From Elusimicrobiota bacterium (GTDB lineage Bacteria; Elusimicrobiota; UBA8919), in contig JBFLWK010000002.1 of assembly GCA_040757695.1 (NCBI GenBank), positions 10,407 through 74,406 on the forward strand: 64,000 bases of DNA. The letters run 5' to 3'. The position numbers were made by a program, and so were the translations under genes. This document shows, in pieces, positions 3,496 through 58,054 of this stretch (position 1 is its first letter; each line of letters opens with the position of its first letter). The notes under the pieces are model-generated. The model did not search any database and was not told the DNA's origin. It was given only the letters and a program-made list of their open reading frames with translations.

Positions 3496-6333
3496 ATGAA
3501 AAGAATCAGAACCGTCTCAATTATTGGAATTTTTATATTTTTATTTTCTACCTGTCTTTTGGCTGATGCCTGGGACCCAACAGATGATATAGCGGTTAAT
3601 GGAACGGTCATTACTCCTACAACAGTAGAACAATCACATGGTCCACATGACTTATCTGCTACTGATACAACTGATTGGTTTAGGATAGATATGATTGCTG
3701 GAACTACATATTATTTTAATACTGTTGGTGGTTCCGGCGATAATTATGGTGAACTTTACAGCGACTCCGGCGGTACAAATCGTGTAGCATATAATGACGA
3801 TAGCGGTGGAAATCTGCAATTCGCCTTTTCATATCAAGCTGCTAATACCCAGACATATTATTTGAAAATAAGAACATATTCTGTTGGTGGAAGTTGGTCT
3901 GGCTCGCTTAACTATAAGTACGGTAACACCGCGCCGATACTTTCATGGACCGGTGAGGCAAATTATACATCAGATGGGCTTGACCCTGAAACAGGCAATA
4001 CATCAACAAACTTTACTTATCGTGTAACTTATACAGATGCGGATAATGATGTGCCTCTCAGCGGGACTCCAAAAGTGCATATCAAAAAAGGCGGCTCTGA
4101 AATTTCAGGTAGTCCGTTTACGATGACATACATTTCAGGAAATTACAACACCGGTGCGATTTACAAAAGCGAGGTGAACCTCGCTACTACAGGAACTGAT
4201 TACACATACTATTTTGAAGCACAGGATTCAAAAGGTGCTTCTGCAACAGGGCTACCGACAAACCCGATAGATGCGCCTGATGTTTATGCTGCTGTTCCTG
4301 CGGGCTTCACTGGTGATTTTTCACAGGCAGGTGGTAGCGTGTATGATGGTGGAAGTGATGACTATGGCTATGGTGTAGCAGTAGATACAATTTCTGTTGG
4401 TGGACCTTACATTTATGTTGTAGGCCCTTCTTCAAATGGTGTCAATGACTTTGATTATTTCACAATAAAATATAATGCTTCCGGTGTAATGCTTGCTTCT
4501 GCAACATTTAATAGTGGCTGGGAGGAGGTGGCTACAGATGTAGTAATAGATAATTCAGGTAATGTATATATTACTGGTTGGTCGCATAACGGCATAGTTG
4601 GGAACTGTCTCACAATCAAATACAATAGTAATTTGGTGTTTCAGTCGTCGGCTTGTATTGGAACCGGTGGATGGGCTATCGGCACAGGTGTAGTTGTAGA
4701 TAATTCAGGAAATGTTTTTGTTATATGTATTTCATACAATTTCCCAAATGACGATATTGTAACAATAAAATATAACAATAATTTAGTGTTTCAATCCTCT
4801 GTTACATTTAATAATAGTTACCGTGAAACAGGGAATGGTATTACAACAGATAATTTGGGAAATGTATATGTTACATGTATCTCGTCAAATGGCGCAACTG
4901 AAGATATTGCCATAGTGAAATATAACTCTAACTTAGTTTTCCAGTCATCAATCGCATTTAATGGTGGTTATAATGACGGAGGTAGTGATATTATTGTGGA
5001 TAATACGGGCAATATTTATGTTACAGGGAATTCATTTTATACTGATGACCGAACTATTACAATAAAATATGATTCCAACATGGTATTTCAGTCCTCGGCT
5101 GTGTTTAATCTATTGGGGTATTGGGGCAGTGGAATAGCGTTGGATAATACTGGTAATGTTTATGTTACATCATATGCAGAACCTAAAGGTCAAGGCGTTA
5201 ATTATTGCCTAATAAAATACAATTCTAATCTGGTATTTCAATCATCAGCAACATTTGATAGTGGTAGTGGTAATGATGATTGTAGTACTGATATAGCAAT
5301 AGACAATTCAGGCAATGTTTATGTTACGGGTTGGTCAAATAACGGCGTAAATGATGACATTCGCACAATAAGGTATACCTCATCTTTAACACCGCCTAAC
5401 AATGCACCTACAATATCATCCCTTACGGCAAACCCGACAAGTGTTTCTACAGGTGCGGTTTCTGTGATTACTTGTTCTGCATCAGACCCTGATGGCGATA
5501 CATTGAGTTATGCGTGGAGTTCTGCGAGTGGCACGATTTCTGGTAGTGGCTATCAAGTCAACTGGACTGCGCCATCATCTTCAGGCACCTATACAATCAC
5601 TGCTACTGTTTCTGATGGCAAAGGCGGTAGTGCTTCAAAAAGTGTAAACATAACTGTAACTGCTGCACAATCAGGTGTTAGTGTTTCCACTTACTACATC
5701 AAGGGCTATGTGAAGAATAGTAATGGCACAGGGATTGCGAATGTGACAATGAGTTTAACAGGCGCAACTGTAAAATCTGCGGCTACAAGTTCAACAGGGT
5801 ATTATGAATTTCTGAATTTAGCCGGTAAGAAAAGTTATACAATAACACCTAAAAAAGAAAACTGGAGTTTTAGCCCGTCAAATTATACTATTCTGCTTAC
5901 TGCAAATACAGAACAGAATTTTACCGGTATATATCTTTTAGTTGATAGCCCTGTAAATATAGATATTCCATTAGGCGAAAACGATAAGCCAGTAACAATA
6001 GAAATGCCAAAACCAAATGATGCAAAAATAGTAGTTGAAGAGCATTCTGAAAAACCTAAAGAGCAGCGCGGTACTGTTAATCCTGATAAGAATGAAGAAG
6101 TTGGGATTGTATTCAAGCCGGACAAAAAACCGGAAGAGTATATCGGGCAGAAATTTACTATACGGATATTTAATTTAGTTGGTGAACTTATAGAAGAGTT
6201 CACAAAAATACCACAGACTGCAGATGATACATGGATGAAATGGCTACCGAAAGATATTGCGTCTGGTATTTATATTGTTCAGGTTAATGGACCCGGTGTA
6301 AAGGTTCACAAGAAGGTAGCAATATTGAGGTAA
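3496..6333 (+). CDS. secreted multi-domain protein: PPC-like domain, SBBP beta-propeller repeats, PKD-like, carboxypeptidase-regulatory-like domain, T9SS-type C-terminal sorting domain
   Basis: Signal peptide LFSTCLLADA; repeated D-N-SGN-Y-VTG SBBP motifs x8; PKD-like ITCSASDPDGDTLSY; C-terminal ~80 aa ending GIYIVQVNGPGVKVHKKVAILR like T9SS/FlgD-Ig CTDs. GTG at 3484 is an alternative start. Confidence 0.75.
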   Translation: MKRIRTVSIIGIFIFLFSTCLLADAWDPTDDIAVNGTVITPTTVEQSHGPHDLSATDTTDWFRIDMIAGTTYYFNTVGGSGDNYGELYSDSGGTNRVAYNDDSGGNLQFAFSYQAANTQTYYLKIRTYSVGGSWSGSLNYKYGNTAPILSWTGEANYTSDGLDPETGNTSTNFTYRVTYTDADNDVPLSGTPKVHIKKGGSEISGSPFTMTYISGNYNTGAIYKSEVNLATTGTDYTYYFEAQDSKGASATGLPTNPIDAPDVYAAVPAGFTGDFSQAGGSVYDGGSDDYGYGVAVDTISVGGPYIYVVGPSSNGVNDFDYFTIKYNASGVMLASATFNSGWEEVATDVVIDNSGNVYITGWSHNGIVGNCLTIKYNSNLVFQSSACIGTGGWAIGTGVVVDNSGNVFVICISYNFPNDDIVTIKYNNNLVFQSSVTFNNSYRETGNGITTDNLGNVYVTCISSNGATEDIAIVKYNSNLVFQSSIAFNGGYNDGGSDIIVDNTGNIYVTGNSFYTDDRTITIKYDSNMVFQSSAVFNLLGYWGSGIALDNTGNVYVTSYAEPKGQGVNYCLIKYNSNLVFQSSATFDSGSGNDDCSTDIAIDNSGNVYVTGWSNNGVNDDIRTIRYTSSLTPPNNAPTISSLTANPTSVSTGAVSVITCSASDPDGDTLSYAWSSASGTISGSGYQVNWTAPSSSGTYTITATVSDGKGGSASKSVNITVTAAQSGVSVSTYYIKGYVKNSNGTGIANVTMSLTGATVKSAATSSTGYYEFLNLAGKKSYTITPKKENWSFSPSNYTILLTANTEQNFTGIYLLVDSPVNIDIPLGENDKPVTIEMPKPNDAKIVVEEHSEKPKEQRGTVNPDKNEEVGIVFKPDKKPEEYIGQKFTIRIFNLVGELIEEFTKIPQTADDTWMKWLPKDIASGIYIVQVNGPGVKVHKKVAILR

Positions 6334-6398
6334 GAAAGACAGACGATAGACGTTAGTAGTAGCCGTCTACTCTCTCGTGTCTGATTTATTGGTGGTGT

Positions 6399-7646
6399 GT
6401 GATGTTTAGAAAAATTTTATCTGTGTTTATCTGTGCCCTCTGTGGTTTTTCTCTGTGTCCTCTGTGGTCTCATTACGGAAAAAGTGGCTGGATTATATTT
6501 CGTAAGTTGCAATCACCAAAACCAAAATCAATAACAGCGGTATGCGCAGTACGAGGTGATTTATCCGGTGTGCTTTACAACCCTGCTACAGTTGCATCAG
6601 CTGAGCAAAAAGAAGTGTTTATATTAGGCGAAACAGGGCTTGCAAAAGATAGTGTTGCAGGACTAATTTATGCACAGCCGTTAAAATCGCAGACACTAGC
6701 AGCTGGTATAATGTCGTATAATGCTGGTAAAATGACACTTTACTGGATAGAAAACGGGCTGGAGAAAGAGAAAGAAGTTATAGCACAGCGTGATTTACTC
6801 GGATTTATATCATATGCACGGCAATTTACAGCAAAACTTCATATTGGTACTACATTAAAATTTGCAAATAGTAATATCGCAGAAGTAAAATCGGCATCCG
6901 CAATTGGCAGCGATTTCGGGCTGTTGTATCTAGCACATATTAACGGATTATCTTTATCTGTAGCGGTTCAGAATATAGGGCTTTCAACAAAATTTATAGA
7001 AAAAAAAGAAAAACTACCTGTAAGTATATCATTTGGTAGCGGATATACGAGCAAACTGACTCAGAAATCTTATTTAAGTTTCGGGTTTGAAGTTCCATAT
7101 ATTGTAAAAGATGAACATCTGATACCCGGTGTTGGACTTGAGTATGGTATTTCAGTATTCTCCATAAATTCAGGATACAGGTTTATTAAAAACGGTGATG
7201 CGGTTTTTCAGGCAGGGTTTGGAATAATGCTTGCAGATAAACTTGAGTTTGGTTATTCTTTTCTACCTGCAACATATTTATCTGATACACACAGAGTTAA
7301 CGTTGGCTACCGATTCGGAGAAGCACACGGAACCGACGCGGAAATAGAACGCGAAACTGACGCGGAAATAGAACGCGAAACTGACGCGGAAATAGAACGC
7401 GAAACTGATGCAGAACCTAAAGGCGAGATTGCTTCGCCTACGGCTCGCAATGACAAGCAATTAACGAATCGGAAAAAAAAGAACCTGATGACGGAACATT
7501 TTAATAAAGCGACTCAATTATATCAGAAAAAAAAATATGAGGAAGCAATCGCCGAGTGGGAAGCGGTCTTGAAACTTGACCCGCAACACAAGATATCCCA
7601 ACATAAAATAGAAACTGCAAAAAAGCAATTGAACTTAAAAAAATAA
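6399..7646 (+). CDS. PorV/PorQ-family-like outer-membrane beta-barrel with C-terminal TDAEIERE repeats and TPR-like tail
   Basis: Immediately downstream of CTD cargo; N-terminal motif LYNPATVASAEQ; alternating beta-strand pattern; C-terminus YEEAIAEWEAVLKLDPQH is TPR-like. Confidence 0.5.
   Translation: MMFRKILSVFICALCGFSLCPLWSHYGKSGWIIFRKLQSPKPKSITAVCAVRGDLSGVLYNPATVASAEQKEVFILGETGLAKDSVAGLIYAQPLKSQTLAAGIMSYNAGKMTLYWIENGLEKEKEVIAQRDLLGFISYARQFTAKLHIGTTLKFANSNIAEVKSASAIGSDFGLLYLAHINGLSLSVAVQNIGLSTKFIEKKEKLPVSISFGSGYTSKLTQKSYLSFGFEVPYIVKDEHLIPGVGLEYGISVFSINSGYRFIKNGDAVFQAGFGIMLADKLEFGYSFLPATYLSDTHRVNVGYRFGEAHGTDAEIERETDAEIERETDAEIERETDAEPKGEIASPTARNDKQLTNRKKKNLMTEHFNKATQLYQKKKYEEAIAEWEAVLKLDPQHKISQHKIETAKKQLNLKK
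7330..7410 (+). repeat. near-perfect 24-bp tandem repeat x3.5 inside CDS (encodes TDAEIERE x3)
   Basis: ACTGACGCGGAAATAGAACGCGAA repeated essentially without mismatches. Confidence 0.85.
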
Positions 7647-8192: not shown

Positions 8193-11100
8193 ATGAAAAA
8201 GACGCTGAAGTATCGGCTGCTTTTCCTTCTACCTTCTACCTTCTACCTTCTTACCTGTCTTTATGCTGGTTCGTCCTTGCATTATGTTAATCACTGGCAT
8301 GACCATCAGCCAATCTACTGGCCTAACAAAACACGCGCTTCATCTGCCAACCGATATGAATACGGAAACGAGACAATCAATAACAAAAACAATTCGCCTT
8401 ACGCAGGACATTCGTCTGTAGATGTTTTTGGTGTGTTTAATGTAGACGATAGAAAAGCCGCTTACCAGTATCGTTGTAAAGATGCACTTGGAACAATTAC
8501 TGGTTATCCTGAAGCAGGCTTTACTATTTCATATACAGGTGCGCTTGCAGAAAATGTGAAATCACTCGGTGACGCATATGCACTCGGCTATGGTCCTGAC
8601 TGGAACAATCCCTGGAAAGAAGCACGCGCTTGGACAACTTCTGGTGGAAAATCCAGGATGGATATTTTACTGACTGGTTTTCATCACCAGTTTTTTCCGC
8701 TTCTGCCCGACGATACATTAGCACGAAGAATAATTCAGTTATACAAACAGGGCTATCCTGAATGGTGGGGTACAACACCTTCACAATCTACTGGTTTCTG
8801 GCCAATGGAACTCGCATTTTCAGAGCGAATGATACCAACACTTCTATCAGAGGGTGTTACCTGGACTTATATTGCAAATAGCCATATCTCGCGGTGTATG
8901 CCGAACTGGCCTGCAACGCCCGGTAACGGAATGAATACAGAGCCGCCAAACAAAGCAGACCAGTATAATCCAAATGGTACTGCGGGATGGCGGAACGCAA
9001 CGCAAGATGGAAGACCCACAACTAATGATTTACGAGAGGCGTACAGACCTCATTATGCTAAATATATTGACCCTGAAACTGGCACAGCGTCAAAAATAAT
9101 AGTTGTTCCTTGCGGTGATTACGAAGGTTATATTGACGGTTATCAGACATTTGATGTTGGGCTTTTTGATGCAATTGCCGGCGCACAAGATGCAACACGT
9201 CCTGCCCTTGTAGTATTAGCACACGATGGAGATAACGCCTGGGGCGGTGGTTATGATTCTTATATGACCAATACACCACAGAAAGCAAGTGGTGCAAGTG
9301 CTCGGGGCTATACACCTTCACAGACATCACAGTATTTAGCAGACCATCCTGTACCTGTTAGTGATATCTGGCATGTTGAAGATGGTCCGTGGGTAAATGC
9401 AGCGGGTGATTTTGGCTCGCCTACTTTTTCAAACTGGAACTGGCCCTGGAAAAAGGATAATCTGCCAAATGCACCGACATTTGACTCAACCGCATGGGAT
9501 GATAATTCGCAATTCTGGGCAATTTTAACAGCAGGAACAAATCGCATTCTAACCGCTGAAAGTTATGTCGGCACTCCGAATATGGCAAATGTTTTACATC
9601 CAGACCAGACCACACCATCAAATATAGATTTAGCATGGCACTACTGGTTAGCAGGGTTTGATTCCGGACATGTTTATTACGGGACTGCCGAAGATTTTTC
9701 GTGGATACCTATTATCGCCATGAACAATGCGATGCCTTATTGCGATGCGATTATTGGCAGTGGCGAGATTACAGGTGCTGATACCGTTCCGCCAACTGTA
9801 TGGATACCGCAGAGATTTCCATATAATCCTGGCTCGTTGAATTATGGCTGTGCGTATAATTATAAGTCATTCAATTATCCGGCAGAGTTTGATGTGTACA
9901 GTTTTGTATATGATGCTTCTGGGCTTTCATCTGTAAAATTAAAATATAGAACAGCAACAGGTGCGAATACTACACCAATTGAGCCGGATAATTTTATTTA
10001 CGCAGGCGGAACAGCAGTAACCAGTTGGAATGAAATAAATATGTCTACAGGCACATGGACGGTAAAAGTTATGTTAAATGGAACCGAACAGATTCCTGCG
10101 CCTGTTACACCGAATTATATGCCTGTTAGATGCTGGGCACATGTCTCACCGGGTGCCAATAAACTTGTTGATTACTATATTGAAGCGACGGATAAAAAAG
10201 GCAATATCCGGAAAACAGCAATTCAACACTGCTGGGTTGGTGATGGCTCAGGTGCAGGTGGTGGTGGAACACAACTCTGGACACCAACAAATCCAACTGC
10301 AAGCGACCAAATTACTATTTACGGCTCTATTCTCGGCAAACCTGGCAAACTGCATTGGGGTGTTAATGGTTGGACACAGCCGTCATCAGAATACTGGCCA
10401 AGCAACTCCACAACAACCGTCTATGATGCACAATCAGTTGAGACGGTGATGCTGTTTGATGGAACTTCTTACTATATTACACTCGGTCCTTTCAACAAAA
10501 ACCAGGCAGTAAGCGAGTTAAATTTTGTATTCCATTGGGATGATGGCACCTGGGATAATAATGGTGGCGCAAACTGGAAAATTGCGATAAGCCCTGTGGA
10601 TACAACACCGCCGGCAAGCCCTCAACGACTGACTGCAACTGCAAAAAATACTGCAATTGACCTATCCTGGCAGGCGAATACAGAACCGGATTTAGCCGGT
10701 TACAATATCTATCAATGGTTCGTTTCAAGTTATGCTGTTCTCAATTCACAACTTGTAACATGGACAACTGGTTACACTGTCTCCCAACTAACAAACGGTA
10801 CAACTTACACATTTGTCCTAACCGCAAAAGATACTACTGGCAATGAAGCCGGATATTCTACATCTGTAACAACCTCGCCTGTAGCAACTGATACATTTGC
10901 ACCCCAAACACCAACCAACTTCTCAGTTTCAGGCGGTATTGAGAAAACAATCCTTAACTGGACCGCTAATCTTGAAACAGACCTATACGGCTACAGGGTC
11001 TACAGAAGCACATATACCAGTTCGTTCGCTCAAAAAGTTTTTATTGCAACAGTCACAGCACCATCTTATTCATATAATGATTCAGGACTAACTGCCGGGC

Positions 11101-14100
11101 TTACATACTACTATCAAATCACAGCACTTGATAATCTGTATAATGAATCATCTGCGACATCTGAAAAATACGGGCTTGCTCAATCGGTCCCACCGCCATC
11201 AGCACCAACCGGTCTTGTTGCAACACCCGGGAATGCAGAAGTGTACCTGAACTGGAACCCGAATACAGAAGCAAATCTCGCTGGCTACAATCTATACTGC
11301 TCGTCTGTCGGTGTATATTACAAAGTTAATACCGCGCTTATTACAGGTGCAACAACCTATTCGCATACTTCACTCACAAATGGTGTAACCTACTACTATA
11401 AACTCACCGCAGTAAATACTGTCGGAGGTGAATCGCAATTTTCAAATGAGGTTTCTGCAATACCTGCTGCGTTAGTGCCTGTTATTTTTCAGGTTGATAT
11501 GCGAGATATCGCAAATGTGACTTCCGTAAATATAGCAGGCGATATTTTAACGCCAGCATGGTCAGCAACTGCCAATCCGTTAACAAACCAATCAGGCACA
11601 CTTTCAGGTATCTGGAAAGTCACTATTAGTCTTGCTCAAAATGCAACGCTTAAATACAAATATACATATAATGGCGCGAATTGGGAGAACGATTTCGGTA
11701 CCGCACCGAATAACAACCGTCAAATTACAATCAGCCCGAATAATGCGAATTCTATGTATGTCTCAAATAAATGGAACATAGCAGGCGATGCGATACCTCT
11801 GGTTCCAACAGGGCTCACCGCAACAGGACAATTAGATAGCAAAATACTTGTAAAATATAACGCAAATACTGAGTGGGATTTACATGGCTACAACATTTAT
11901 ACAAGCAGTTATTCTTCAACAGTTGGCTATATCAAAAGTGTTTCTACAACAACCTCAACATCTTATTTGCTTTCCGGACTTGAGAATAACAATACATATT
12001 ATGTAAAAATAGAAGCACAGGATTTATCAGGACAGAAAAGCGGTATCTGCGGGCCGGTTTCTGCGATTGCGGGTGTTGATGACCCACCAGCAGTTGTCAC
12101 GGGCTTAACTGCGACTGCTAAAGATTCTGCAGTTGAACTGAAATGGTCTGCAAATACAGAATCCGATTTAGCCGGCTATTATGTATTCTGGTCAACAAAC
12201 ACAGGTGGTCCTTATTCAAGCACATCCACATTTATCTCGTCAACAACAGTTATCTATACCGCGTCACCATTAACAAACGGCACAGCATACTATTTTGTTG
12301 TCCGTGCATCAGATACCGTTGGGAATTTAAGTACAAATTCATTACAAGTAACTGCTACACCATCTTCTCAGCCAAGTTATGAAGAACGCACTATTGATGG
12401 CAGTTTCCTGGATTGGAAATTTTCTGATGTCAGGGCTCTGGATGCCTGTGAGGATACATATAATTTTTCAGATGGCTATGATTCTGCGAGAGATATTGTA
12501 GCACTTTATTCTCGTGAAGGCGTTAATAATTACTATTTCAGGGTTGATTTTCACGAGTTAGGGCTTTATGCAGAAAACGGCTATCTGGACTTGTATCTCG
12601 CTATTGATTGTGCAACAGGCGGACAGGTCTGGCTGCCTGATTATATGGACTGTCAGACGGACAAGCCGTGGGAAATATGTATCGCACTCTATAACGCTAC
12701 CTCTGCGAGTATTTACAAGAACGACTGGACGACGGTAAATACCGCATTCCAGGGTGCAAAATTTAATAGCCAGTATGACTCTGTAGAACTCGCAATCTCA
12801 AAATCAGCACTCACCGCTTACGGCTGGACACCCGGGACACCAATTGGGATTCAGACATTTTCAACAAAAGATGGAACCAATGGCGGAACCGGCGAAATTG
12901 CCGGTGCTTCTGATATTGTTGATGCCATTGAAGACGATGATAGGGGATATTCCGACGGTATTTTGAATGGAAACACACTTTCTACCGCATCAACTGGCAG
13001 GGCAAAATACGGATTTATTTATCACGGGAACCAATCACTGAATCTTGCGAATGATATTCGGGGCTGGATTTACACAACTTATCTTGACCATACACCAACG
13101 GGCTATCGGCGTGGGCTTGATACTATAGAAAATTTCGGTGTAAAAGGCAATATCCATGTAAGCGGAACTTTAGCAAGTGCGATACAGTGGGCAGACACTA
13201 CTTTCAATCAACGGATTGCTAATCTAACCTCTAACGGACAGACCGCGGTTATTGGTGGCGTGTTAGCAGAACATATGATGCCGTATTTTGAGGACTCCGG
13301 CGGCTATAATCCAAATTCGCGTGCGATACAAAATGGGACGGAGCTATTAACCTCTATATACAACCTCGCAATACAGCCAAAGGTCTTCTGGACTCCTGAA
13401 AGAGTAATCCGAGGACTGACATTCGCTGATATACTTACTAACCACGATACGGGACAGCCAACCGGTTATACCGCCACTGTATTAGACGACAAATACCATC
13501 TCAGGAACTGGTTTGCAATGCCGGATTCACAAAGATTCAAGTTGCATAAAATAAATGGTGTCTATGTGTTCCTAATTAACGGTGTCCGTGCAGATAGCGA
13601 GGCACAACCGGGCGATACCAATCAACTCACTTACGGCTACTACGACCCTGATGGCGCCAAATTCTGGAATCAGGACAACGGAATGCATATCGGAACCAGA
13701 AAATTATTGTTAGAAAGAGCGCAGGATTCAGACCAGGAACAACTTGTGCTCGTGTTTGACGATTGGGAAGCATATGCGGGCAGGTCATTCACTTCAGCAC
13801 TGCCAAACGATAACGCGGATAACTGGGATAAGACAATCGGCTGGGTTGCAAACCACCAGTGGATTGAGACGGTAACACTTGAAGATATTCTTTCACGCGG
13901 CTGGACACCAATAGACCACGGAACTAATACAACACTGCCAGTTGTCACATATGACTGGCTGATGCATGCCTGTGAGAACTCATATGACAACTGGTATAAC
14001 GGCACATCTCTGGAAGAAAGTTTCTTAAATCGTATCCCGAATGTGAAAGGCACTACCCCACTGCCATCAAACAAAAAATACGGGAATCTGGCAACTGCTG

Positions 14101-47940: not shown

Positions 47941-47953
47941 AAAAACAAAAAAT

Positions 47954-48571: not shown

Positions 48572-48726
48572 AAATAATATGGTCGCTAACCAGACAAAAG
48601 GGGGTGATTAAAATGGGAAGATGGTTAGAAACTGGAGTACGACGATTTATCGTCGCTAATTCGCGTATATTCGCGGGTCTAATTCGCGAAGATTCGCGTT
48701 ATTCTAAAAAAAAGGAGGTGATTAGA

Positions 48727-49854
48727 ATGGAAAGATGGTTAGATGGAAAGATGGTAAGATGGCTCGGTCTTGCTTCTTGCTTCTTGTTTCTTGTTTCTTG
48801 TTCGCTGTTTGCTGATTTTGGTGGTGCAGGTGCGCCTACTGCTGATGGTACATATGGTGCAGCGGTAAAGTACATCTCTTTACAGCAAGGAACAACATCA
48901 TCTGCATGGATGAATAGAGGCAATATCGCAGCATTCGCTCAAATGACTTCTGTTGGTGATGGAACATACTACTGCAAATACAACCTCTATCCGGGCGCTG
49001 TCTACAACTATATGTTTTTTGCTACTTTTGGTAGTTCAACACCACCAACCGGTATAACCGGTGGGACAACCTACTATGACTGCCCTCGTGATAGCGGTGA
49101 TGATGCTGCATTCTTTGTAGCGGTTGACTCCAACAACCCAACTGGAACAAGACGAGCCGGTGCCGCATATTTCGGTGCAGGTAATGATAGTGGTGATTCC
49201 AGACGAATACTTGTTGTGCCACAGGATACCGGTTATTCGCTTTCTTCAACCTCAGGTGTCTGGGTGTATAACAACTGGTCATCTACCGGTGTAGCAAATG
49301 TAGATGCAATCCCTGTAAGTAACACATCTCTCAATGTTACACTTGGTGCGTACACAACATGGGGAACTGGTGAAAGTTACAAATCTATTGACATCTACGG
49401 TGGCGGGAAATGGTTTCTCTATAGAGCAACAGACCTCACGGGTACTTACGGGTTAATTGCATCTTCTACCTCTGCTAACTTAGGTGCTAATATGACCTAT
49501 CTGGATGAAGGTTTAACAACAGGTACCACTTATTACTACATCGCAGTTACATCAGATGCCTATAAAGGTGCAATGAACGCACTTGCAGCAGATGGCTGTC
49601 TTGTGAGGCAGTTAACTGGCGGTGCAACAGGACCATATGCGCCAAGTTATGACCAGCCTAGTGAAATCAGTTATGACGACTACGCAAGACCTGCAGCTGC
49701 GATACCTGTGTACTTCAAAGTTGAAGCACCCAACTGGGACTATATCGCAGAGCATGACTACATAGTATACCTGACACCGGTTGGTAAAGACGGCAGAGAA
49801 TGGCCATACAAGATGCCAGGCAGAATCTGTAGAGTGTATCTACCGAAAACATAA
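48727..49854 (+). CDS. secreted protein paralogous to the C-terminal modules of the 2787-aa protein
   Basis: SD AAGGAGGTGATTAGA before ATG 48727; signal peptide FLFLVSCSLFADF. YFGAGNDSGDSRRILVVP ~ WYGNVGATGDSRRLLYVP; PVYFKVEAPNW ~ PLYFKVERKD. A near-duplicate start (ATG 48613) lies upstream. Confidence 0.6.
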   Translation: MERWLDGKMVRWLGLASCFLFLVSCSLFADFGGAGAPTADGTYGAAVKYISLQQGTTSSAWMNRGNIAAFAQMTSVGDGTYYCKYNLYPGAVYNYMFFATFGSSTPPTGITGGTTYYDCPRDSGDDAAFFVAVDSNNPTGTRRAGAAYFGAGNDSGDSRRILVVPQDTGYSLSSTSGVWVYNNWSSTGVANVDAIPVSNTSLNVTLGAYTTWGTGESYKSIDIYGGGKWFLYRATDLTGTYGLIASSTSANLGANMTYLDEGLTTGTTYYYIAVTSDAYKGAMNALAADGCLVRQLTGGATGPYAPSYDQPSEISYDDYARPAAAIPVYFKVEAPNWDYIAEHDYIVYLTPVGKDGREWPYKMPGRICRVYLPKT

Positions 49855-50329: not shown

Positions 50330-53053
50330 ATGACAACAATGCTGTTATCTGCGTTCATCTGTATCTTTTTTCTGCAGTCATTTGTGTTCTGTAGTTCTGA
50401 GAAAGCGCCATGGTCTAACTACTCGAAATGGCTTACTGGTTCGGATACACTTGGCAACTGGCAGGTAAAAGCAAACACAGGCACCTGGGATGGCGCTAAT
50501 AACTGGGTAATAAAAATATCTACTGAAGATCCGCAAAAAGCATTTTTCCCGGGTAGAGATTATTACTATCTCTATCAGACCATAACACCGGCGGGGGGTG
50601 GGGGTGAGGGGGTTGTCTGGGACCAACGAGCACGCGGGAAATCACAAGACCAATGGCAACCTTGGAAATCAGAACGAAAAATCAATCTACCTATTTTAGG
50701 TATTGATAAAGTGCTTGCAAATGGAACAACATATTATCCACTAAATGATTATATTGTCTGGTATGGCTCATGGCCTGTTGATAGCGGCCATTGGGAAGTC
50801 TACGATAACTGGGGTGGTGGGAATACAACTGACTCAAGAAAAGGTCCACCACTACCACCAACAAATCTTACCGGCTTTTTAATTGGTAAATATACAGGTG
50901 TAGGAGCATCAATAGAATGGACTCAACCTACCTGGTATGGTGATGATATCAAGGACTTAACAGCCGGCGGTGGTTATGAATTATGGCGGTCGTCTTATTC
51001 TTCTATTGCATCAACAACCACATTCACAAAAGTTGCAATTGCACTTGGTCCAGCACCACCACTTTCTTACACAGATACAGGGCTTTTATCAAATACCACA
51101 TATTTCTATTGTTTGAAATCATATGATGCCTATCTGCCAGCAGATTATTCTGGATTCTCTAATGTGTTAGCGCTCTATGGCGCTCAGCAACCGGTTGATA
51201 TCACATTCAATATTGATATAACAGGCTATTCTGCAGATAAGGTTTTTGTCTGGTGTGAATTCTCTAATGAAAAATACCAGATGCCTGACAGAAAAAACCA
51301 TCTCTGGAGTATAAAAATTCCGAATTCTGCAGCACCATTAAAACTGCTTATTGGTAACACAATAAAATACAGGTATGTTAAAGATAATGACTGGGAGCAG
51401 TATGACAGAAGCGTGCTGCTGGTTTCTACAGATACTGTATTAAACGATATCTGGGGTGTAGAAACAGTGCCGGATTCACCCGCAGGTCTGGCAGCTGAAA
51501 TCGTCACTTTTAGAACTGAGCCCGTCGGAAGTTATAGAACAAATGTTCTATGGGAGACAGACCCGAAACAATTACAAAATATCGCTGGCTATGAAATTCA
51601 GCACTCTACATTTTCAAACTTTACCAGTTCTACTACAATTACAATTCTGTCTGCAAATACAAGTTCGTATTTCCTGACATCCGCGGCTGCATATTTTAGA
51701 TTCTCAACTATTTACAAAACTGGCGTAAAATCAAGCCAGTCTGATATAATCCCACGTGGAACTGAACTACCTGCACTTGTTGAATTACAGAATACCGATG
51801 CAAAAGCTATAAATACATTGATTGCAAGAACTGGCTCAAATACAGGCGAGATTATTCTGTTTTGGAAGGCGCCGGAAATATCTACATCAGCCGGTAGTGC
51901 AAACCATTATATCATTCGCCAGGCAACTTTTCCAATGACGAACATTTCATTATTCAAACAAGGTACTCTCACAGGTAAAGCAAAAGCACATTATACTGAT
52001 ACTGATGAAGCATACATAACATTGAATCTTGGTGAAGAATGCCCTGGCTATTATTTTGGTATAGAAGCGATTTATGGCAACTGGAAAGCAGCAACTGTAT
52101 CAAACAATATAATCGGTGTTGCAGGTAAGTTTATTGTAACCAAAAAAGGCGGGACTACCGAAAAAGCAGCAAAAGGATTAGGAACTGAAGAACAGTACTT
52201 AACAAAACCGAACATAATAACCAAAAAATACGGAGTATCCGTTCCGAACGCAATTTTTGTTGTAAAAAATTCTGTTGAACTCGCAAAACTAACCGAGCCG
52301 GAATTAAAAAAGATACTAACTTCTGAGACACTACCGAATTTAGCAGCACAAAAACGATTTAAACAGCCGACTGAAAATACGGATTTAGAAAATAAGGACT
52401 CTACTGTGTTTGAATTCTCGGCATTTAGCCAGGCAAGTAATAAATTATTCAGCAGTGCCGAAAATATCAATCTGCCGTTTGTCATCGCAATCCCGTATTC
52501 TCAACTTGATAAAGATAATGACGGAATAGTAGATTCATCTAAAGGCACACAAAATGAGATAAAAGTCGCTAACCTGCGGGTTTATCGGCTGAATGAAAAA
52601 TATAACCCACCTTTCTGGCAGCGACTGAAAGATGGCACCAATTCTGTTGATACTGTCAACAAATTGGTAAAAGCAGAAACAAAACATCTATCATACTTCT
52701 GTCTCGCCACACCCGGTAATGCTGCGGAAGATTTATCAAATGTCGTTGTATTCCCGAACCCGTTCAAGCCTTACGATAATAAAGCCGAAACAGGCAGTTA
52801 TGAAACCGGGATTATATTCACCAACTTGACACCAACTGCCGAAATATGGATTTATACTATCGCAGCCGAACTGGTAAAAAAACATAAACTTCAAGGGCTT
52901 TCTGATGACGAAAAAGAAGGTAAATGGAAATGGGATGTCCGAAATGATGCTGGCGAACGGCTCGCATCCGGTGTGTATGTTTTTGTTGTAAAAGATGAAA
53001 ATGTGAAATTGGGGAAGGACAAATTTGTAGGAAAATTATGTGTTATTAGATGA
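50330..53053 (+). CDS. secreted FN3/CBM20-like protein with T9SS-type C-terminal sorting domain
   Basis: ATG 50330 lies in the terminal IR of a GTCATTCTGA...TCAGAATGAC repeat; signal peptide ICIFFLQSFVFCSSE. CBM20-like VDITFNIDITGY...IKYRYVKDNDWEQYDR; CTD starts VVFPNPFKPY and ends KFVGKLCVIR. Confidence 0.65.
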   Translation: MTTMLLSAFICIFFLQSFVFCSSEKAPWSNYSKWLTGSDTLGNWQVKANTGTWDGANNWVIKISTEDPQKAFFPGRDYYYLYQTITPAGGGGEGVVWDQRARGKSQDQWQPWKSERKINLPILGIDKVLANGTTYYPLNDYIVWYGSWPVDSGHWEVYDNWGGGNTTDSRKGPPLPPTNLTGFLIGKYTGVGASIEWTQPTWYGDDIKDLTAGGGYELWRSSYSSIASTTTFTKVAIALGPAPPLSYTDTGLLSNTTYFYCLKSYDAYLPADYSGFSNVLALYGAQQPVDITFNIDITGYSADKVFVWCEFSNEKYQMPDRKNHLWSIKIPNSAAPLKLLIGNTIKYRYVKDNDWEQYDRSVLLVSTDTVLNDIWGVETVPDSPAGLAAEIVTFRTEPVGSYRTNVLWETDPKQLQNIAGYEIQHSTFSNFTSSTTITILSANTSSYFLTSAAAYFRFSTIYKTGVKSSQSDIIPRGTELPALVELQNTDAKAINTLIARTGSNTGEIILFWKAPEISTSAGSANHYIIRQATFPMTNISLFKQGTLTGKAKAHYTDTDEAYITLNLGEECPGYYFGIEAIYGNWKAATVSNNIIGVAGKFIVTKKGGTTEKAAKGLGTEEQYLTKPNIITKKYGVSVPNAIFVVKNSVELAKLTEPELKKILTSETLPNLAAQKRFKQPTENTDLENKDSTVFEFSAFSQASNKLFSSAENINLPFVIAIPYSQLDKDNDGIVDSSKGTQNEIKVANLRVYRLNEKYNPPFWQRLKDGTNSVDTVNKLVKAETKHLSYFCLATPGNAAEDLSNVVVFPNPFKPYDNKAETGSYETGIIFTNLTPTAEIWIYTIAAELVKKHKLQGLSDDEKEGKWKWDVRNDAGERLASGVYVFVVKDENVKLGKDKFVGKLCVIR

Positions 53054-53116: not shown

Positions 53117-54157
53117 TTGTATAATCCGATGAATAAAAATCAAAAATCAAAAATCAAAAATCAAAATGACAGATTAAAATTCAAAAATTTTAGATTTTGG
53201 ATTGTCATTTTGCATTTTACATTTTGCATTTTACATTTTGCCGAAGGCAGTGGTCCCGGCACTACTTCTGCCAATTTCCTGAAAATAGGTATCGGTGCAA
53301 GACCTGTGGCAATGGGTGAGGCATTCGTTGCAGTTGCCGACGATGCTAATACAATCGTGCATAATCCTGCCGGGCTTGCTCAACTATCACAAAAAGAATT
53401 CTCAGCAATGCATCTGGAGTATTTTCAGAATATAAAATATGAAGCGCTTTCATATCTACAACCATTCAAATTCGGAACTGCTGGTATCTCGCTTGGTTAT
53501 CTTTATATGAACGATATAAAGCGAACCTATTTTTACGAAGAAGAGTATTATAAAGAAGCAGGCGAATTCGGCGCCGCAGACAGAACCGCGGTTTTAGGTT
53601 TCGGTAAAAAATTAGGTAGTCGGCACTTAAGTGCCGACTACGGATATGGCTTAGCAGTAAGGTTTATCCGAGAGACGCTTGAGAGCGAATCCGCTACTGC
53701 TTTTGCGTTGGATATCGGGTTGCTCTGTAATCGGCAATTAATTGCCAATTACATTTCTTTACCACTGTCTTTTGGTATCGCAATTCAGAACATTGGCACA
53801 CAGATGAAGTTTATTGAAGTAAAAGAGAAACTACCAATTATTTTGAGAACTGGTGTTTGCTGGAATGTATCAGGTAAGAGGGGAATTAATTCCCCCCTAC
53901 TTGCGTTTGAGTTTTATAAACCATCAGATAATTATCCGGAATTAAAACTCGGCTCGGAAATATGGCTTTTTGACCTTTTTGCACCACGTATTGGCTATCG
54001 TTACAGAACCTGGGCAAGAAATAACTATCTTGGTGACCTCTCAGGGCTTACCGCAGGGCTTGGTATCAAAATATATAATTATACAGTTGATTACGCATTC
54101 GTGCCTTACGGTGATTTGGGCTATACGCATAGATTCTCACTAGGTGGCAGATTTTAA
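53117..54157 (+). CDS. PorV/PorQ-family-like outer-membrane beta-barrel (no TPR tail)
   Basis: FLKIGIGARPVAMGEAFVAVADDANTIVHNPAGLAQL; contains three in-frame REP family-1 palindromes (53617-53642, 53732-53748, 53879-53896). Leader from (AAATCAAA)n/(ACATTTTG)n repeats. Confidence 0.55.
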   Translation: MYNPMNKNQKSKIKNQNDRLKFKNFRFWIVILHFTFCILHFAEGSGPGTTSANFLKIGIGARPVAMGEAFVAVADDANTIVHNPAGLAQLSQKEFSAMHLEYFQNIKYEALSYLQPFKFGTAGISLGYLYMNDIKRTYFYEEEYYKEAGEFGAADRTAVLGFGKKLGSRHLSADYGYGLAVRFIRETLESESATAFALDIGLLCNRQLIANYISLPLSFGIAIQNIGTQMKFIEVKEKLPIILRTGVCWNVSGKRGINSPLLAFEFYKPSDNYPELKLGSEIWLFDLFAPRIGYRYRTWARNNYLGDLSGLTAGLGIKIYNYTVDYAFVPYGDLGYTHRFSLGGRF

Positions 54158-54435: not shown

Positions 54436-56555
54436 AAACCTGTATCTGCTATCTGCTATCTGCTATCTGCTATCTGCTATCTCCTATCTGCCTTTTCGCC
54501 TCTTCACCTCACACAATCACAGTTGACGGTAACCTTTCCGACTGGTCTTCAGACGAATTGATTTATGATGACCCGACAAACGACGGTGCCTGGGGACAAC
54601 AGAATCAGGTTGATAATCTGTATCTCACCTGGGATAGTAATAATCTGTATATCGGTGTAAGCGGTGTTCAGAAAGATGGGAATTGTTTTGTATTGTATTT
54701 AGATGCTGGAAGGGAACTTACAAATATCGGTCAGAAATTTGGTGATTATTCAGATGTATCTCAACTGAAAGATTCAAGTGGCTATTCTTGGTGGTGGTCA
54801 AGAAATCATAAATTCCCGTTTGGCTTTTTACCTGATTATCAACTTCATCTTTATGAAATGCAGTTAAAATTGAACGAGGGACACGGACTTTTCAGATATA
54901 CAACAAGCAGTCAGACAGTATCAGTTGAGATGAGTTCTTCTGCATATATTGGTGGTGGGACAGGTGTTTATGGCAGTTTTGAAGTTGCAATCCCGTGGGC
55001 TCAAATCTATCCTGATTACGGGGGAAGTATTCCTCAAAATGCAACCTTACAACTTGTTGCTGTGATGTCAGGCGGGAATGACACATCTAACCAACTACTC
55101 GGTTCTGTCCATGATTCAATTCCTGACCAACTAACGGATTTCACAACCTATTGGCACGGAGCATTTACGTTTGATACATGGCTAACAATACCGTTAGACC
55201 AAGATAGAAATAAGGAACCTGATATAAATCGGTCGCCTGTCCCGAGGAATCTTTTGGCAAAAGCAGGTGATGGTTGCGCATTTTTATCCTGGCAGAAAAA
55301 GGGCTTCTGGGAAAAAAATCTTAACGGCTATAAACTGTATTACAAAAAGCAACAGAGTTTTGCAGAAACAGATTTCTCATTAACAGGTGCAACTTCTGTT
55401 TTCGTTAGTAATACTACAAGTTATATTTTAACCGGTTTAGAAAATAATGTTTCATACTATTTTGTGCTAACTGCTATAAATACTGACGGGACTGAATCAG
55501 GTTGCTGTGAAGAAGAGTATTGTTATATCCACGGACCTACAATCTTTCATACATCAATAGAAAAGTTTGCATATCCAGGCAAAAATATCACAGTATCTGC
55601 TAATATCACAGATTCATCAGAACTTAAAATAGTAAATTTTTACTATAAAGTTCACGGTGGCGTATGTTATTCTGAAAATGTATTAACTCCAACACCCCCA
55701 ACATCGGCATCTTACAACTTCACAATCCCGGGTGATTCTGTAACACCGGAAGGGATTGACTATTACTTTTTAGCCGAGAATAATTCTGGCGATGTGAATA
55801 TCGCATCATCAACAATTGTGATTGTTTCAACAGAGTCCGGAAATTATAGTGTGGAAGCAGGGCTGGAATTGAAATTATCTGATACATCAACATATCCAAC
55901 AAAAATCGTAATCCCACCTTACGCATTAGACAGAACCCAAAAAATCTATGTTGAAGTAAAAAGCCACGGTGTTATCTTTCAAGACAACCAATCTCCAATC
56001 CCCAATCCCCAATCTCCAATCTCTGACATTTACCCTGTCTGTGTCTATGATTTTTATGGTGAGAATAAAACAGCAGTCGCATTTTCTAAAAATGCAGAAA
56101 TATATCTGAAATACTTTGATGACGATTTAGATAACAATTACTCTGAGATAACCTTGAAGCCGTTTGTCTGGACTGGTACGGAGTGGCTTGAATTAAAAAA
56201 TATCACACAAAATACTACCAATAATTTTGTTAAAGGTAAAACAGGTCATATCTCAAGATTTGCCGTATTTTATACCAACTCTTCTGGTAGCGCAGCCTTA
56301 AGGCCACATCTACAAAAAGTTGTCCGTTCTACTTTTATTCCTGACCGCGGTGAAGTTGTTGAGTTTAATTGTGCACAGTTGCCAACAAAAATAGAAATTT
56401 TTAATACATACGGTGCAAGAGTAAAAAAAATTACAGAACTCACTTACTGGGACGGCAGAGATGAAAACGGTACGATTGTGTCCGCAGGCGTTTATATCTA
56501 CCAGATACATTTTGGTAAAGAAATAATCTCAGGCAGTTGCGTTGTGGTGAAATGA
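54432..56555 (+). CDS. secreted CBM9-like/FN3 protein with T9SS-type C-terminal sorting domain
   Basis: Leader (CTGCTAT)x5; ITVDGNLSDWSSDE...LYLTWDSNNLYIGV; FN3; C-terminus WDGRDENGTIVSAGVYIYQIHFGKEIISGSCVVVK; stop overlaps next start. Confidence 0.7.
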   Translation: MKTCICYLLSAICYLLSPICLFASSPHTITVDGNLSDWSSDELIYDDPTNDGAWGQQNQVDNLYLTWDSNNLYIGVSGVQKDGNCFVLYLDAGRELTNIGQKFGDYSDVSQLKDSSGYSWWWSRNHKFPFGFLPDYQLHLYEMQLKLNEGHGLFRYTTSSQTVSVEMSSSAYIGGGTGVYGSFEVAIPWAQIYPDYGGSIPQNATLQLVAVMSGGNDTSNQLLGSVHDSIPDQLTDFTTYWHGAFTFDTWLTIPLDQDRNKEPDINRSPVPRNLLAKAGDGCAFLSWQKKGFWEKNLNGYKLYYKKQQSFAETDFSLTGATSVFVSNTTSYILTGLENNVSYYFVLTAINTDGTESGCCEEEYCYIHGPTIFHTSIEKFAYPGKNITVSANITDSSELKIVNFYYKVHGGVCYSENVLTPTPPTSASYNFTIPGDSVTPEGIDYYFLAENNSGDVNIASSTIVIVSTESGNYSVEAGLELKLSDTSTYPTKIVIPPYALDRTQKIYVEVKSHGVIFQDNQSPIPNPQSPISDIYPVCVYDFYGENKTAVAFSKNAEIYLKYFDDDLDNNYSEITLKPFVWTGTEWLELKNITQNTTNNFVKGKTGHISRFAVFYTNSSGSAALRPHLQKVVRSTFIPDRGEVVEFNCAQLPTKIEIFNTYGARVKKITELTYWDGRDENGTIVSAGVYIYQIHFGKEIISGSCVVVK

Positions 56556-58054
56556 TGACAATTAAAAATTACAAATTAAAAATTAAAAATTGTGGTTTGT
56601 TTTTGACATTCATTTTTCATTTTTCATTTTTCATTTTTCATTGCCTCTATGCTTCTTTTTCCGATATAAATATCACAAAAAATGATGGGCTTGCCAAATC
56701 AGGTGTCGCATCAATTTCCGATATTTCTGCATCTGTTATCAATCCAGCAGGTATCTCGCTTATTAAAGGAACACAGGTCTCTGTTGAATATCAGAAACTG
56801 TTTGTTGGATTGAAAGGTCCGTCTTACGAAGTTGACGGATTCAACAAACTAGATATCTCTAACAGTTTTTTGGGCTTGGCGACATCACTGCCTAAAAATA
56901 TCGGTGCAGTATCGTTCTATTGGAAATCATTCACAAGTTATAACCAGTATTTGGAAAATGTTTACGCTTTATGCTATGCAAGAAATTTAGAAGAAATATT
57001 TTTACGAGAAAAAGAAGAAGAATTCTCAGTTGGCGTTTCGTTAAAATATCTAACTGTTGGATATACCGCAGATGAATACACTCAGGATTTTTTTGATAAA
57101 TACGGGAATACAGCCAGCGGGTTTTCATCTGACTTGGGCTTGAAGTACTCGCCTGTCAGAGGGTTGGATTTCGGCGTTGCATTCTTGAATATCTATTCAT
57201 CTGATTTAGGGCTTGTTTATGAAAACAAACCGGAAAAACAGACTTTTTTAGGCGCTTCCTATAAACCAATAAACTATCTGACTGCAACCTGTGCATATTC
57301 GTTCAAAGAATCATATCCGTCTCAAAATGTTCATCTTGGTGCTGAATTTGAACTCCTAAGAAAACTTATTACTCTGCGGTCAGGCATTAACCGTGATGAA
57401 ATAACTACCGGCTGGACATTAAAAGGTGGGAAGTGGGGAAATTTTAATATCAATTACGCATTTGCATATCCGTTCCAGCTCGTTTCCTCCTACGGCTCAC
57501 ATATTCTATCGGTAGTATTTGAACTTCCACCAACTGCAGCAGAAGAACCTGAAACTGTCACACCAGCACCACCAGCTCCCCCAGTCACTGAACAACCTCA
57601 GCCAGAACCTGTCCCGACTGAAATTGAGAAACCAGTTGAAGCAGTCCCCCCCCCACCCCTCCCAGAACCACAGGTGCCGAAACCAGTCCCTAAACAAAAA
57701 GAATTTACAGAAAAACAGAAGAAAAGAATTATGGAACGACATTATAATAAAGCAATCTGGCATTTGCAACATGGTGAAGATAAACAGGCAATAATAGAGT
57801 TTGAAAAAATACTGAAATTAGAACCGAACCATAAACCATCGTTAGTACGGCTTGAGGCAGCAAAAAAACGGACTGATAAAGAACGAATAAAAGAAAAAAT
57901 AAAACAGCATTGGACACAGGGTGTAAAACTTTACCAGCAGAAACAATTTGATAATGCAAAAAAGGAGTTTGAAGAAATTCTGAAAATAAATCCAGCACAC
58001 GAACCATCAAAAAAACGGCTGGAACTGATAAAAAAAGAGTTGAAAAAAAGGTAA
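56552..58054 (+). CDS. PorV/PorQ-family-like outer-membrane beta-barrel with Pro-rich linker and two C-terminal TPR-like repeats
   Basis: ISASVINPAGISL motif; linker PAPPAPPVTEQPQPEPVP; tail HYNKAIWHLQHGEDKQAIIEFEKILKLEPNH and FDNAKKEFEEILKINPAH. ATG 56552 overlaps the upstream stop. Confidence 0.5.
   Translation: MMTIKNYKLKIKNCGLFLTFIFHFSFFIFHCLYASFSDINITKNDGLAKSGVASISDISASVINPAGISLIKGTQVSVEYQKLFVGLKGPSYEVDGFNKLDISNSFLGLATSLPKNIGAVSFYWKSFTSYNQYLENVYALCYARNLEEIFLREKEEEFSVGVSLKYLTVGYTADEYTQDFFDKYGNTASGFSSDLGLKYSPVRGLDFGVAFLNIYSSDLGLVYENKPEKQTFLGASYKPINYLTATCAYSFKESYPSQNVHLGAEFELLRKLITLRSGINRDEITTGWTLKGGKWGNFNINYAFAYPFQLVSSYGSHILSVVFELPPTAAEEPETVTPAPPAPPVTEQPQPEPVPTEIEKPVEAVPPPPLPEPQVPKPVPKQKEFTEKQKKRIMERHYNKAIWHLQHGEDKQAIIEFEKILKLEPNHKPSLVRLEAAKKRTDKERIKEKIKQHWTQGVKLYQQKQFDNAKKEFEEILKINPAHEPSKKRLELIKKELKKR

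Follow-up and report, generated by a model that had tools for sequence, protein, structure and literature searches.

The 64,000-nucleotide stretch of an Elusimicrobiota bacterium genome analyzed here in its entirety (contig JBFLWK010000002.1, positions 10,407 to 74,406; hereafter the window) carries four gene pairs in which a gene for a putatively exported "cargo" protein, ending in a C-terminal domain (CTD) of the kind known from type IX secretion systems (T9SS), is followed immediately by a gene for an outer-membrane barrel of the PorV/PorQ family. The gene order, the translational coupling, the family and fold of both parts, the conservation of the pairing across genomes and the co-variation of its two members are direct observations. 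By analogy with characterized CTD-barrel complexes, each barrel is probably a dedicated anchor or carrier that binds the CTD of its neighbor and gives a 1:1 complex at the cell surface.

Open reading frame (ORF) calling on the window places all four pairs on the + strand, as real ORFs with the coordinates listed in the preliminary description of this DNA, which had read them as cargo genes each followed by its own barrel. Cargo C1 (3496-6333) comprises a signal peptide, SBBP β-propeller repeats, a Big_9/PKD Ig domain, a CarboxypepD_reg domain and a CTD of ~90 residues (about 6060-6330), and precedes barrel B1 (6399-7646), in which a PorV/PorQ-family barrel at residues ~28-307 is followed by a repeat linker and one TPR at residues 367-397. 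Cargo C2 (25638-27833) starts with a signal peptide and an N-terminal domain, followed by two fn3 domains and a CTD (about 27560-27830), and its stop codon overlaps the start of B2 (27830-29266), a protein identical to NCBI entry MEW6555825.1, annotated for Elusimicrobiota bacterium as "hypothetical protein AB1349_00545" and encoded on a contig of 94,874 bp. Cargo C3 (50330-53053) has a signal peptide, a passenger that lacks Pfam matches and has repeats in common with a giant protein encoded elsewhere in the window, and a CTD (about 52760-53050) with the motif PNPF; it is followed by B3 (53117-54157), a short PorV/PorQ-family barrel without a periplasmic extension. Cargo C4 (54432-56555) has a signal peptide whose coding sequence is a 7-nt tandem repeat, followed by an fn3 domain and a CTD (about 56310-56552), and its stop codon overlaps the start of B4 (56552-58054), a divergent PorV/PorQ-like barrel with a Pro/Glu-rich linker and a TPR domain that is about 28-29% identical to B2. 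Both start/stop overlaps, C2/B2 and C4/B4, can be read directly in the sequence as ATGA.

All eight products of the pairs begin with a signal-peptide-like hydrophobic stretch. Alternative starts are present for C1 (GTG at 3484), C3 (an upstream ATG at 50222, in REP-like sequence) and B3 (53117 or 53129). The later start codons adopted previously for C1, C3 and B4 are the sensible ones, since they stand just before the stretches that resemble signal peptides, and since repeat-like sequence contains the additional 5' codons of C3. Within the window, a barrel follows all four CTD-positive ORFs and a CTD ORF precedes all four barrels. The + strand also holds every other ORF of at least 150 amino acids except one at 13670-14161, a probably spurious ORF within the giant gene. 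A 21-nt tandem repeat of about 8 or more copies (3219-3451) occupies the gap directly upstream of C1.

Taken as a family, the cargo tails are clearly CTDs of the T9SS type A/PorU/PorZ/FlgD-Ig kind. Taken singly, no cargo in the window reaches the cut-off of either type A model (TIGR04183, 23 bits; PF18962 Por_Secre_tail, 27 bits). The C1 tail scores 19.3 and 17.4 bits with these two models, both matches at the extreme C-terminus, and is also matched by the local CTD hidden Markov model (HMM) described below. With TIGR04183 the isolated C2 tail scores 20.7 and C4 15.9 bits, and every type A match in the window sits C-terminally. C3 matches neither type A model; its tail locally matches the CTDs of two other models, PorZ (43.6 bits) and PorU. 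C3 was rejected as a PorZ or PorU homologue, the match being confined to its CTD, and the window matches to these two models in general fall on the CTD regions of the models. For type B CTDs, the scores with PF13585 CHU_C (cut-off 27 bits) are 22.6 for C2, 21.7 for C4 and 26.5 for the isolated C2 tail, and TIGR04131 matches no cargo in the window. Among the 64 tails that were collected directly upstream of barrels across genomes, matches were obtained with PorU in 49, TIGR04183 in 48, FlgD_ig in 48, CHU_C in 45, PorZ in 36 and, weakly, TIGR04131 in 21. Of the two models proposed earlier for identifying the tails, TIGR04183 matches 48 of the 64 relatives and TIGR04131 21, the latter weakly, and no tail of the window by itself reaches the cut-off of either.

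A profile built from the paired tails finds the C-terminal regions of PorU (6za2) and PorZ (5m11) at ~2e-9 and the RgpB CTD at 8e-4, and it also matches FlgD Ig domains and the F. johnsoniae substrate CTDs seen in SprA-PorV complexes. Because the FlgD Ig domains match about equally, the tails belong to a broader FlgD-Ig/CTD superfamily. AlphaFold2 (AF2) models the C-terminal 100 residues of C4 (predicted local distance difference test score, pLDDT, 79) as a β-sandwich, for which the top Foldseek matches are PorZ (5m11), 8gl8_D, 8glk_D, T9SS substrate CTDs, FlgD, the RgpB CTD and PorU, with weak E-values of 3e-3 to 7e-2; the C-terminal domain of 5m11 is also the segment matched by the CTD profile. 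The family consensus is PNPF...IY...G..V...WDG....G..V.SG.Y......G...V.K, ending at the C-terminus of the protein, and the CTDs of the window have W-x-G...G-[VI]-Y-[IV]...[KR]-end in common. The tails had earlier been characterized by the pattern VFPNPF...GVYIY...K/R; profile and fold uphold their nature as T9SS-type/FlgD-Ig CTDs, while VFPNPF as such is found in C3 only.

For all four barrels the best-scoring NCBIfam model is NF033709, the subfamily model of the PorV/PorQ family with a cut-off of 90 bits. B3 scores 172.6 bits, B1 90.0 (exactly at the cut-off), B2 42.1 and B4 31.1, and the model matches 63 of the 64 paired barrels at E<1e-3. The equivalog cut-offs for PorV (NF033710, 250 bits), PorQ (NF033711, 220) and PorV2 (NF052325, 325) are reached by none of the four; the best equivalog scores of the window are those of B3 (PorQ 95.7, PorV 75.9 and PorV2 74.6 bits), and B1 scores 66 bits with the PorQ model. 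The description of the barrels as PorV/PorQ-like is therefore correct at the level of the family, by the NF033709 matches and by the profile match to PorV given below. The cut-offs for PorP/SprF (TIGR03519, 90.55 bits; PF11751, 22.3 bits) are not reached either, with 19.8 and 16.0 bits for B1 and 17.3 for B2, and sub-threshold or weak PorP/SprF matches occur in 20 of the 64 relatives. Weak Pfam matches among the barrels are to UPF0164, PorV, Toluene_X and PorP_SprF. The FadL/OmpP1/TodX family (PF03349, Toluene_X; cut-off 29.7 bits) is reached by none of the window barrels, with 16.3 bits for B3 and no match for B1, B2 and B4.

Comparison with solved structures used a barrel-only profile built from 60 barrel domains. 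It matches F. johnsoniae PorV (6h3i_F) at E 1.2e-29, CymD at 5e-8, TbuX at 3e-5 and FadL at 3e-3, which places the family more than 20 orders of magnitude nearer to PorV than to FadL-type channels. PorV is reached by profiles only; a single-sequence phmmer search of B3 against PDB returned nothing relevant. The AF2 model of B2 (pLDDT 87) contains an N-terminal helical plug region (residues 44-71), 14 strands (residues 76-308), a long helix (residues 316-351) and a TPR-like helical domain extending to residue 477. Foldseek ranks FadL first for this model, so the fold alone cannot separate the subfamilies, which the sequence profile can. The barrels are accordingly 14-strand FadL-fold outer-membrane proteins with an N-terminal plug whose nearest solved relative is PorV. 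The outcome that would have undone the original reading, namely barrels that match FadL/OmpP1 transporters only, was not seen, and a classification as FadL alone was rejected on the Toluene_X score (16.3 against 29.7) and the PorV-nearest profile. Of the four barrels, B2 and B3 have the complete N-terminal G-A-R... motif said to be common to them all, and B1 and B4 have a degenerate form of it. Since the motif aligns with the N-terminal parts of both PorV and CymD, a FadL-family channel, it is best read as a signature of the whole superfamily and not as peculiar to these genes. Two REP-like palindromes lie in frame within the intact B3 gene, at 53602-53641 (encoding ...GSRHLSADY...) and 53713-53752 (encoding ...NRQLIANY...), the second being an insertion relative to the other three barrels.

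In B1, B2 and B4 the last strand is followed by a low-complexity or coiled linker and TPR repeats (TPR_2, 41.8 bits in B4), and relatives carry TPR, LysM, helix-hairpin-helix (HhH) or OmpA-like domains at the same position. When the number of strands is even, both termini of a barrel lie in the periplasm, so these extensions are predicted to be periplasmic. The linker of B1 is a 24-nt tandem repeat (7322-7417) that encodes DAEIERET three times.

The conservation of the pairing was assessed by a barrel-first scan, in which a narrow barrel alignment was searched against one genome per GTDB species and 80 loci were returned. About a third of these are labelled Elusimicrobia or Elusimicrobiota; the other labels include Firestonebacteria, FCPU426, Zixibacteria, Ignavibacteriales, Eisenbacteria, WOR-3, Marinimicrobia, Cloacimonadota, Latescibacterota, Gemmatimonadota and Margulisiibacteriota, and the conserved pairs span more than 10 labelled phyla. 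Some of the metagenome-assembled genomes (MAGs) are labelled Clostridia or Spirochaetes, and such labels may be unreliable. In the 83 loci analyzed, ORFs were called locally, barrels were identified with an HMM from the narrow alignment and CTDs with an HMM seeded from the four window tails only. The 101 barrels thus found include 86 with a same-strand upstream ORF, and this ORF ends in a CTD in 64 of the 86 (74%). By comparison, 9 of 78 downstream ORFs and 86 of 804 ORFs overall are CTD-positive, and the association of a CTD with the position upstream of a barrel has an odds ratio of 92 (Fisher p 3e-56). The median gap between cargo and barrel is 1.5 bp, and it is exactly -4 bp, the ATGA-type overlap, in 23 of the 64 pairs. 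A coincidental adjacency of two abundant gene families, as the several copies of both in 64 kb might suggest, can be dismissed in view of this odds ratio, the fixed gene order, the 23 overlaps of exactly 4 bp and the conservation across phyla.

The passengers of the paired cargos are unrelated in 95% of comparisons, while their CTDs are related in 55%, which indicates that the tail is what the barrel travels with. Distances between barrels and between CTDs are correlated (Mantel r 0.63, reached by 0 of 5000 permutations), a value confounded by the relatedness of the species. When only paralogous pairs of one genome are compared, concordance is 64% against 50% expected, which 87 of 2000 permutations reach. 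There is thus modest support for the view that cargo CTD and barrel are inherited and diverge as a unit. The reverse approach began from CTDs: 120 metagenome stretches were retrieved with a hand-made degenerate DNA pattern for the CTD that was blind to barrels, and a barrel lay downstream of 7 of the 101 CTD genes with room downstream. This result rejects the idea that pairing is generic to CTD genes, and the cargo/barrel arrangement is therefore a specific variant rather than a general property of such genes. A rule that every CTD protein has a private barrel was likewise rejected, as triplets of two cargos and one barrel and unpaired CTD genes occur. At least 5 of 20 seemingly unpaired cases are ORF-caller artefacts (L053, L060, L072) or barrel ORFs with a CTD match of their own (L065, L067). 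The latter two, L065:3966-5312 and L067:9902-11242 in WOR-3 MAGs, are barrel ORFs downstream of a CTD gene with a match to the CTD model at their own C-terminus, and could be natural fusions or products of ORF calling. The proposal of a modular cargo with a private receptor is consequently supported, given the 64 conserved pairs, the variable passengers, the co-variation and the 7 of 101 in the CTD-first test, and "private" has to be softened to a strong tendency.

How such a pair would work is suggested by known CTD-barrel systems. PorU and PorZ retain their CTDs and sit on PorV and PorQ, respectively, and in both P. gingivalis and F. johnsoniae the porU gene directly precedes porV. In the T9SS, the type A CTD is a 7-strand sandwich; the extracellular PorV loops grip it inside SprA, and PorV, a carrier rather than a channel, then takes it away (PMC10994853). 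Proteins with type B CTDs stay on PorP/SprF-like barrels encoded alongside (PMC9143113; PMC12618676), which the latter source treats as cognate shuttles. PorP-PorE-PG1035 and SprF-SprB complexes are described, porP-like genes adjoin porE-like genes, and PorE, which consists of a TPR domain and a peptidoglycan-binding domain, bridges PorP to the cell wall (PMC9143113). We hypothesize, by analogy with PorV and type A CTDs, PorU-PorV, PorZ-PorQ, PorP-PG1035 and SprF-SprB, that the first gene of each pair encodes a Sec-exported protein with a variable adhesin- or binding-like passenger (fn3, PKD/Ig or β-propeller) and a terminal Ig-like β-sandwich of ~90 residues of the T9SS CTD/FlgD-Ig type, and that the second gene, often translationally coupled, specifies an outer-membrane barrel with 14 strands that belongs to the PorV/PorQ branch within the FadL-fold superfamily. 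The extracellular loops of the barrel would bind the CTD of the neighbor, which would be retained and not cleaved, and would carry or anchor the neighbor at the cell surface in a 1:1 complex. The periplasmic linker and TPR domain, or the LysM, HhH or OmpA-like domain of relatives, would tie this complex to periplasmic partners or the cell wall, such that barrel and tether, fused in one chain, would do what PorE does for PorP. CTD-barrel binding, secretion, specificity, surface location and the role of the TPR domain are what we infer from these parallels.

The closest of the parallels are PorU-PorV and PorZ-PorQ. There, as proposed here, a protein with a type-A-like CTD is held by a 14-strand barrel of the PorV/PorQ family; the PorU and PorZ CTDs are the best matches of the window CTDs and of the family profile, and the strongest matches of the barrels are to the PorV/PorQ family model and to solved PorV. 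The differences are that many pairs with diverse adhesin-like passengers occur per genome here, whereas PorU and PorZ are one sortase and one lipopolysaccharide-delivery protein; that the barrels here fall under the PorV and PorQ equivalog cut-offs and often carry periplasmic TPR, LysM or HhH domains; and that the host phylum lies outside the groups with a documented T9SS. The PorP/SprF pairs (SprB-SprF, PG1035-PorP-PorE and those of F. johnsoniae, Fjoh) resemble the present ones in having adjacent genes, one FadL-fold barrel per cargo and anchoring by the CTD (PMC9143113; PMC12618676), and in tethering through the TPR-containing PorE, which parallels the fused TPR or LysM domains. As in those systems, the barrel gene adjoins a CTD cargo, in 4 of 4 cases in the window and 64 of 86 across the loci, which is a likeness of working and not of membership. 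The barrels here score 17-20 bits against the PorP/SprF cut-off of 90.55, the tails touch the type B model in 21 of 64 cases and the type A model in 48 of 64, and the tether forms one chain with the barrel, whereas PorE is a lipoprotein of its own. Since the barrels are PorV/PorQ-like and not PorP/SprF, the comparison with SprB/SprF made in the preliminary description is functional and not familial. With PorV on the SprA translocon the pairs share the barrel family and fold and a CTD β-sandwich of the same superfamily (PMC10994853); the Bacteroidota, however, have one PorV for all type A substrates according to PMC12618676, and here each cargo has its own barrel. FadL, TodX and CymD channels and BamG differ in that the profile matches are far weaker (E 5e-8 to 3e-3, against 1e-29 for PorV), and we know of no CTD-protein partner for any of them. 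The window pairs thus bring together tails of the type-A/PorU/PorZ-like kind, barrels resembling PorV/PorQ, a genetic arrangement of one barrel per cargo as in SprB/SprF, and a fused tether reminiscent of PorE.

Several observations weigh against the interpretation of the pairs as dedicated CTD-binding anchors or carriers. Each window CTD, and likewise B2 and B4, scores under the curated cut-offs when taken singly; co-variation is modest once species relatedness is controlled (87 of 2000 permutations); and the pairing is not strict, given the triplets and unpaired CTD genes. Moreover, scans with family models found no gene for a T9SS translocon, motor or sortase among the proteins of the 64-kb window, so that no T9SS core gene accompanies the pairs there; nor was there a PorU-like gene, whose product in the T9SS removes type A CTDs before cargos are joined to anionic lipopolysaccharide. 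Among the other products encoded in the window are a kinase, regulators, sugar ABC transporters, a pair of GGDEF proteins, three REP-associated transposases, the giant repeat protein and a large amylase. The literature retrieved describes the T9SS as specific to the Bacteroidota or to the Fibrobacterota-Chlorobiota-Bacteroidota (FCB) superphylum, and a literature search returned no relevant report of a T9SS or of PorV-like pairs in Elusimicrobiota or other non-Bacteroidota.

A further hypothesis is that Elusimicrobiota and other non-FCB phyla lack SprA and PorKLMN altogether and that the pair is a free-standing, T9SS-independent system of surface display. It could then be the ancestral module that gave the T9SS of Bacteroidota its CTD signal and its carriers, and tethering and control would come from the fused TPR or LysM domains, in some cases together with a two-component system of its own. 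We regard this as doubtful. Another hypothesis, and an unlikely one, is that the PorV-like barrel, perhaps together with the β-barrel assembly machinery (BAM), itself exports and anchors its partner without an SprA-type translocon, in a manner resembling two-partner or autotransporter (type V) secretion, with the CTD as the targeting signal for its own barrel. The tight adjacency and frequent translational coupling would suit such a unit, as would the occurrence of pairs in Elusimicrobiota, Firestonebacteria, FCPU426 and Margulisiibacteriota when the reviews retrieved confine the T9SS to Bacteroidota/FCB, the failure to find T9SS reports for Elusimicrobiota and the absence of core genes from the window. 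However, the nearest relative with a solved structure, PorV, acts as a carrier rather than a channel (PMC10994853), the B2 model keeps its N-terminal plug and its 14 strands imply a narrow lumen, and cargos reach 2450 residues when complete and more than 3300 when 5'-truncated. The same pairs are also found in Ignavibacteriales, Marinimicrobia, Cloacimonadota and Zixibacteria. These are phyla of the FCB group, to which the reviews retrieved assign the T9SS, and the pair can therefore probably coexist with a T9SS.

A role in signaling, which would be compatible with anchoring, is suggested by the genes that follow some of the longer barrels. Directly after B2 lies a + strand two-component run consisting of a histidine kinase (HAMP/HisKA; 29386-30873), a small ORF grouping with receiver/regulator genes (30953-31342) and a regulator that resembles PhoB (31420-32112), and these genes are possibly linked to the C2/B2 pair. 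Across the loci a histidine-kinase, response-regulator or sigma-54-activator-type gene follows 14 of 46 long barrels (400 residues or more) and 0 of 40 short ones. Such neighbors are seen at B2 and at L012, L015, L017, L022, L026, L032, L037, L038, L040, L045 and L048, under Elusimicrobiota, Ignavibacteriales and Zixibacteria labels. The CTD protein, the barrel or both would on this hypothesis be the envelope input of the downstream two-component system, with the periplasmic TPR domain as point of contact, in parallel to the CTD of PorA, which binds the PorY kinase as a ligand (PMC12152298). However, an adjacent kinase is lacking at most pairs and, within the window, at three of four, two-component genes are common neighbors of many operons, and the large and diverse passengers better suit structural or adhesive roles, which makes signaling as the main function quite unlikely. 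Very unlikely is a function in nutrient uptake, in which the barrel would be a FadL-type channel for a hydrophobic or other small substrate fed by a surface protein that binds or processes it, similar to Sus systems, and the CTD would have nothing to do with the barrel. The weak Toluene_X and UPF0164 matches and the sugar ABC transporter genes elsewhere in the window would fit this function; the proximity of the profile to PorV by more than 20 orders of magnitude, a Toluene_X score of 16.3 against 29.7 and the fact that the CTD is the only conserved part of the upstream proteins and co-varies with the barrel argue otherwise.

Annotations of CTD-tagged proteins and of PorV-like barrels run into the thousands for uncultured phyla, where they are usually taken to mean that the organism has a T9SS. 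The present finding is more specific, namely a fixed and often translationally coupled pair in Elusimicrobiota and at least 10 other labelled lineages. The principle of a cognate carrier has so far been known for type B CTDs and PorP/SprF in Bacteroidota; pairing of this kind, which is widespread outside the Bacteroidota and in which a periplasmic tether is often fused to the barrel, would extend it to PorV/PorQ-like barrels and type-A-like CTDs. The arrangement offers a simple rule by which these genomes can be searched for surface proteins and the anchors predicted for them, and the fused TPR, LysM and HhH tails suggest that such complexes may be tethered to the cell wall without PorE. It also makes testable the question of whether the CTD-barrel interaction is older than, and separable from, the T9SS translocon.

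Several neighbors of the pairs share sequence with one another. The giant gene (8193-24557) encodes a repeat protein of 5454 residues with a C-terminal DUF11 domain, and the gene after it (24584-25570) encodes a protein of 328 residues whose C-terminal DUF11 region is common with the giant protein (40% over 148 residues) and whose N-terminal ~200 residues match cargo C2 (46% over 208 residues). The genes for the giant protein, the 328-residue protein, C2 and B2 may form one operon, with a CTD on C2 alone among the secreted proteins. Immediately after B4 are two diguanylate cyclase (GGDEF) genes, at 58107-59522 (with a GAF domain) and 59512-60657, which overlap by 11 bp and may link the display of surface proteins with control by cyclic di-GMP. 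A 2787-residue protein (39523-47886) with an α-amylase domain and six fn3 domains has a C-terminal region of ~300 residues in common (32% identity) with a 416-residue ORF without family match (48604-49854); this common region is not a T9SS-type CTD, no barrel follows it, and a REP-associated transposase gene lies between the two genes. In the wider set of loci, a recurrent protein of ~600-800 residues with an N-terminal HhH (ComEA-like) segment, a large β-rich region and an aromatic last residue (read by eye in L049) is the next same-strand ORF after a barrel in seven cases. It looks like an outer-membrane protein, and its sequence cluster has the members L049:4897-6933, L052:1366-3369, L055:9585-11732, L057:1709-3487, L058:1826-4120, L082:1332-2408 and L021:13162-15576.

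The window is also rich in short repeats. Eight copies of a repetitive extragenic palindromic (REP)-like palindrome, GTAGTCGGCA.TTAA.TGCCGACTAC, are present at 25569-25608, 38946-38985, 39286-39325, 39543-39582, 53602-53641, 53713-53752, 62600-62639 and 62928-62967, and REP-associated tyrosine transposase genes lie at 38975-39559, 47954-48526 and 62656-63210. A second hairpin family, ACCCGACTTTAGTCGG, clusters around 47812-48573 and occurs also at 378. Tandem repeats of 8 nt are found at 8224-8265, 32232-32289, 33412-33485 and 37572-37629 and of 7 nt at 54443-54494, some of them preceded by inverse (complementary) repeat arrays (33364-33415, 37526-37569 and 48725-48776). These 7- and 8-nt units, which are not multiples of 3, lie in the 5' signal-peptide-coding ends of the genes for the giant protein, C4 and ORFs of 288, 681 and 466 residues, and could be sites of phase variation by slipped-strand mispairing or another family of repeat elements.

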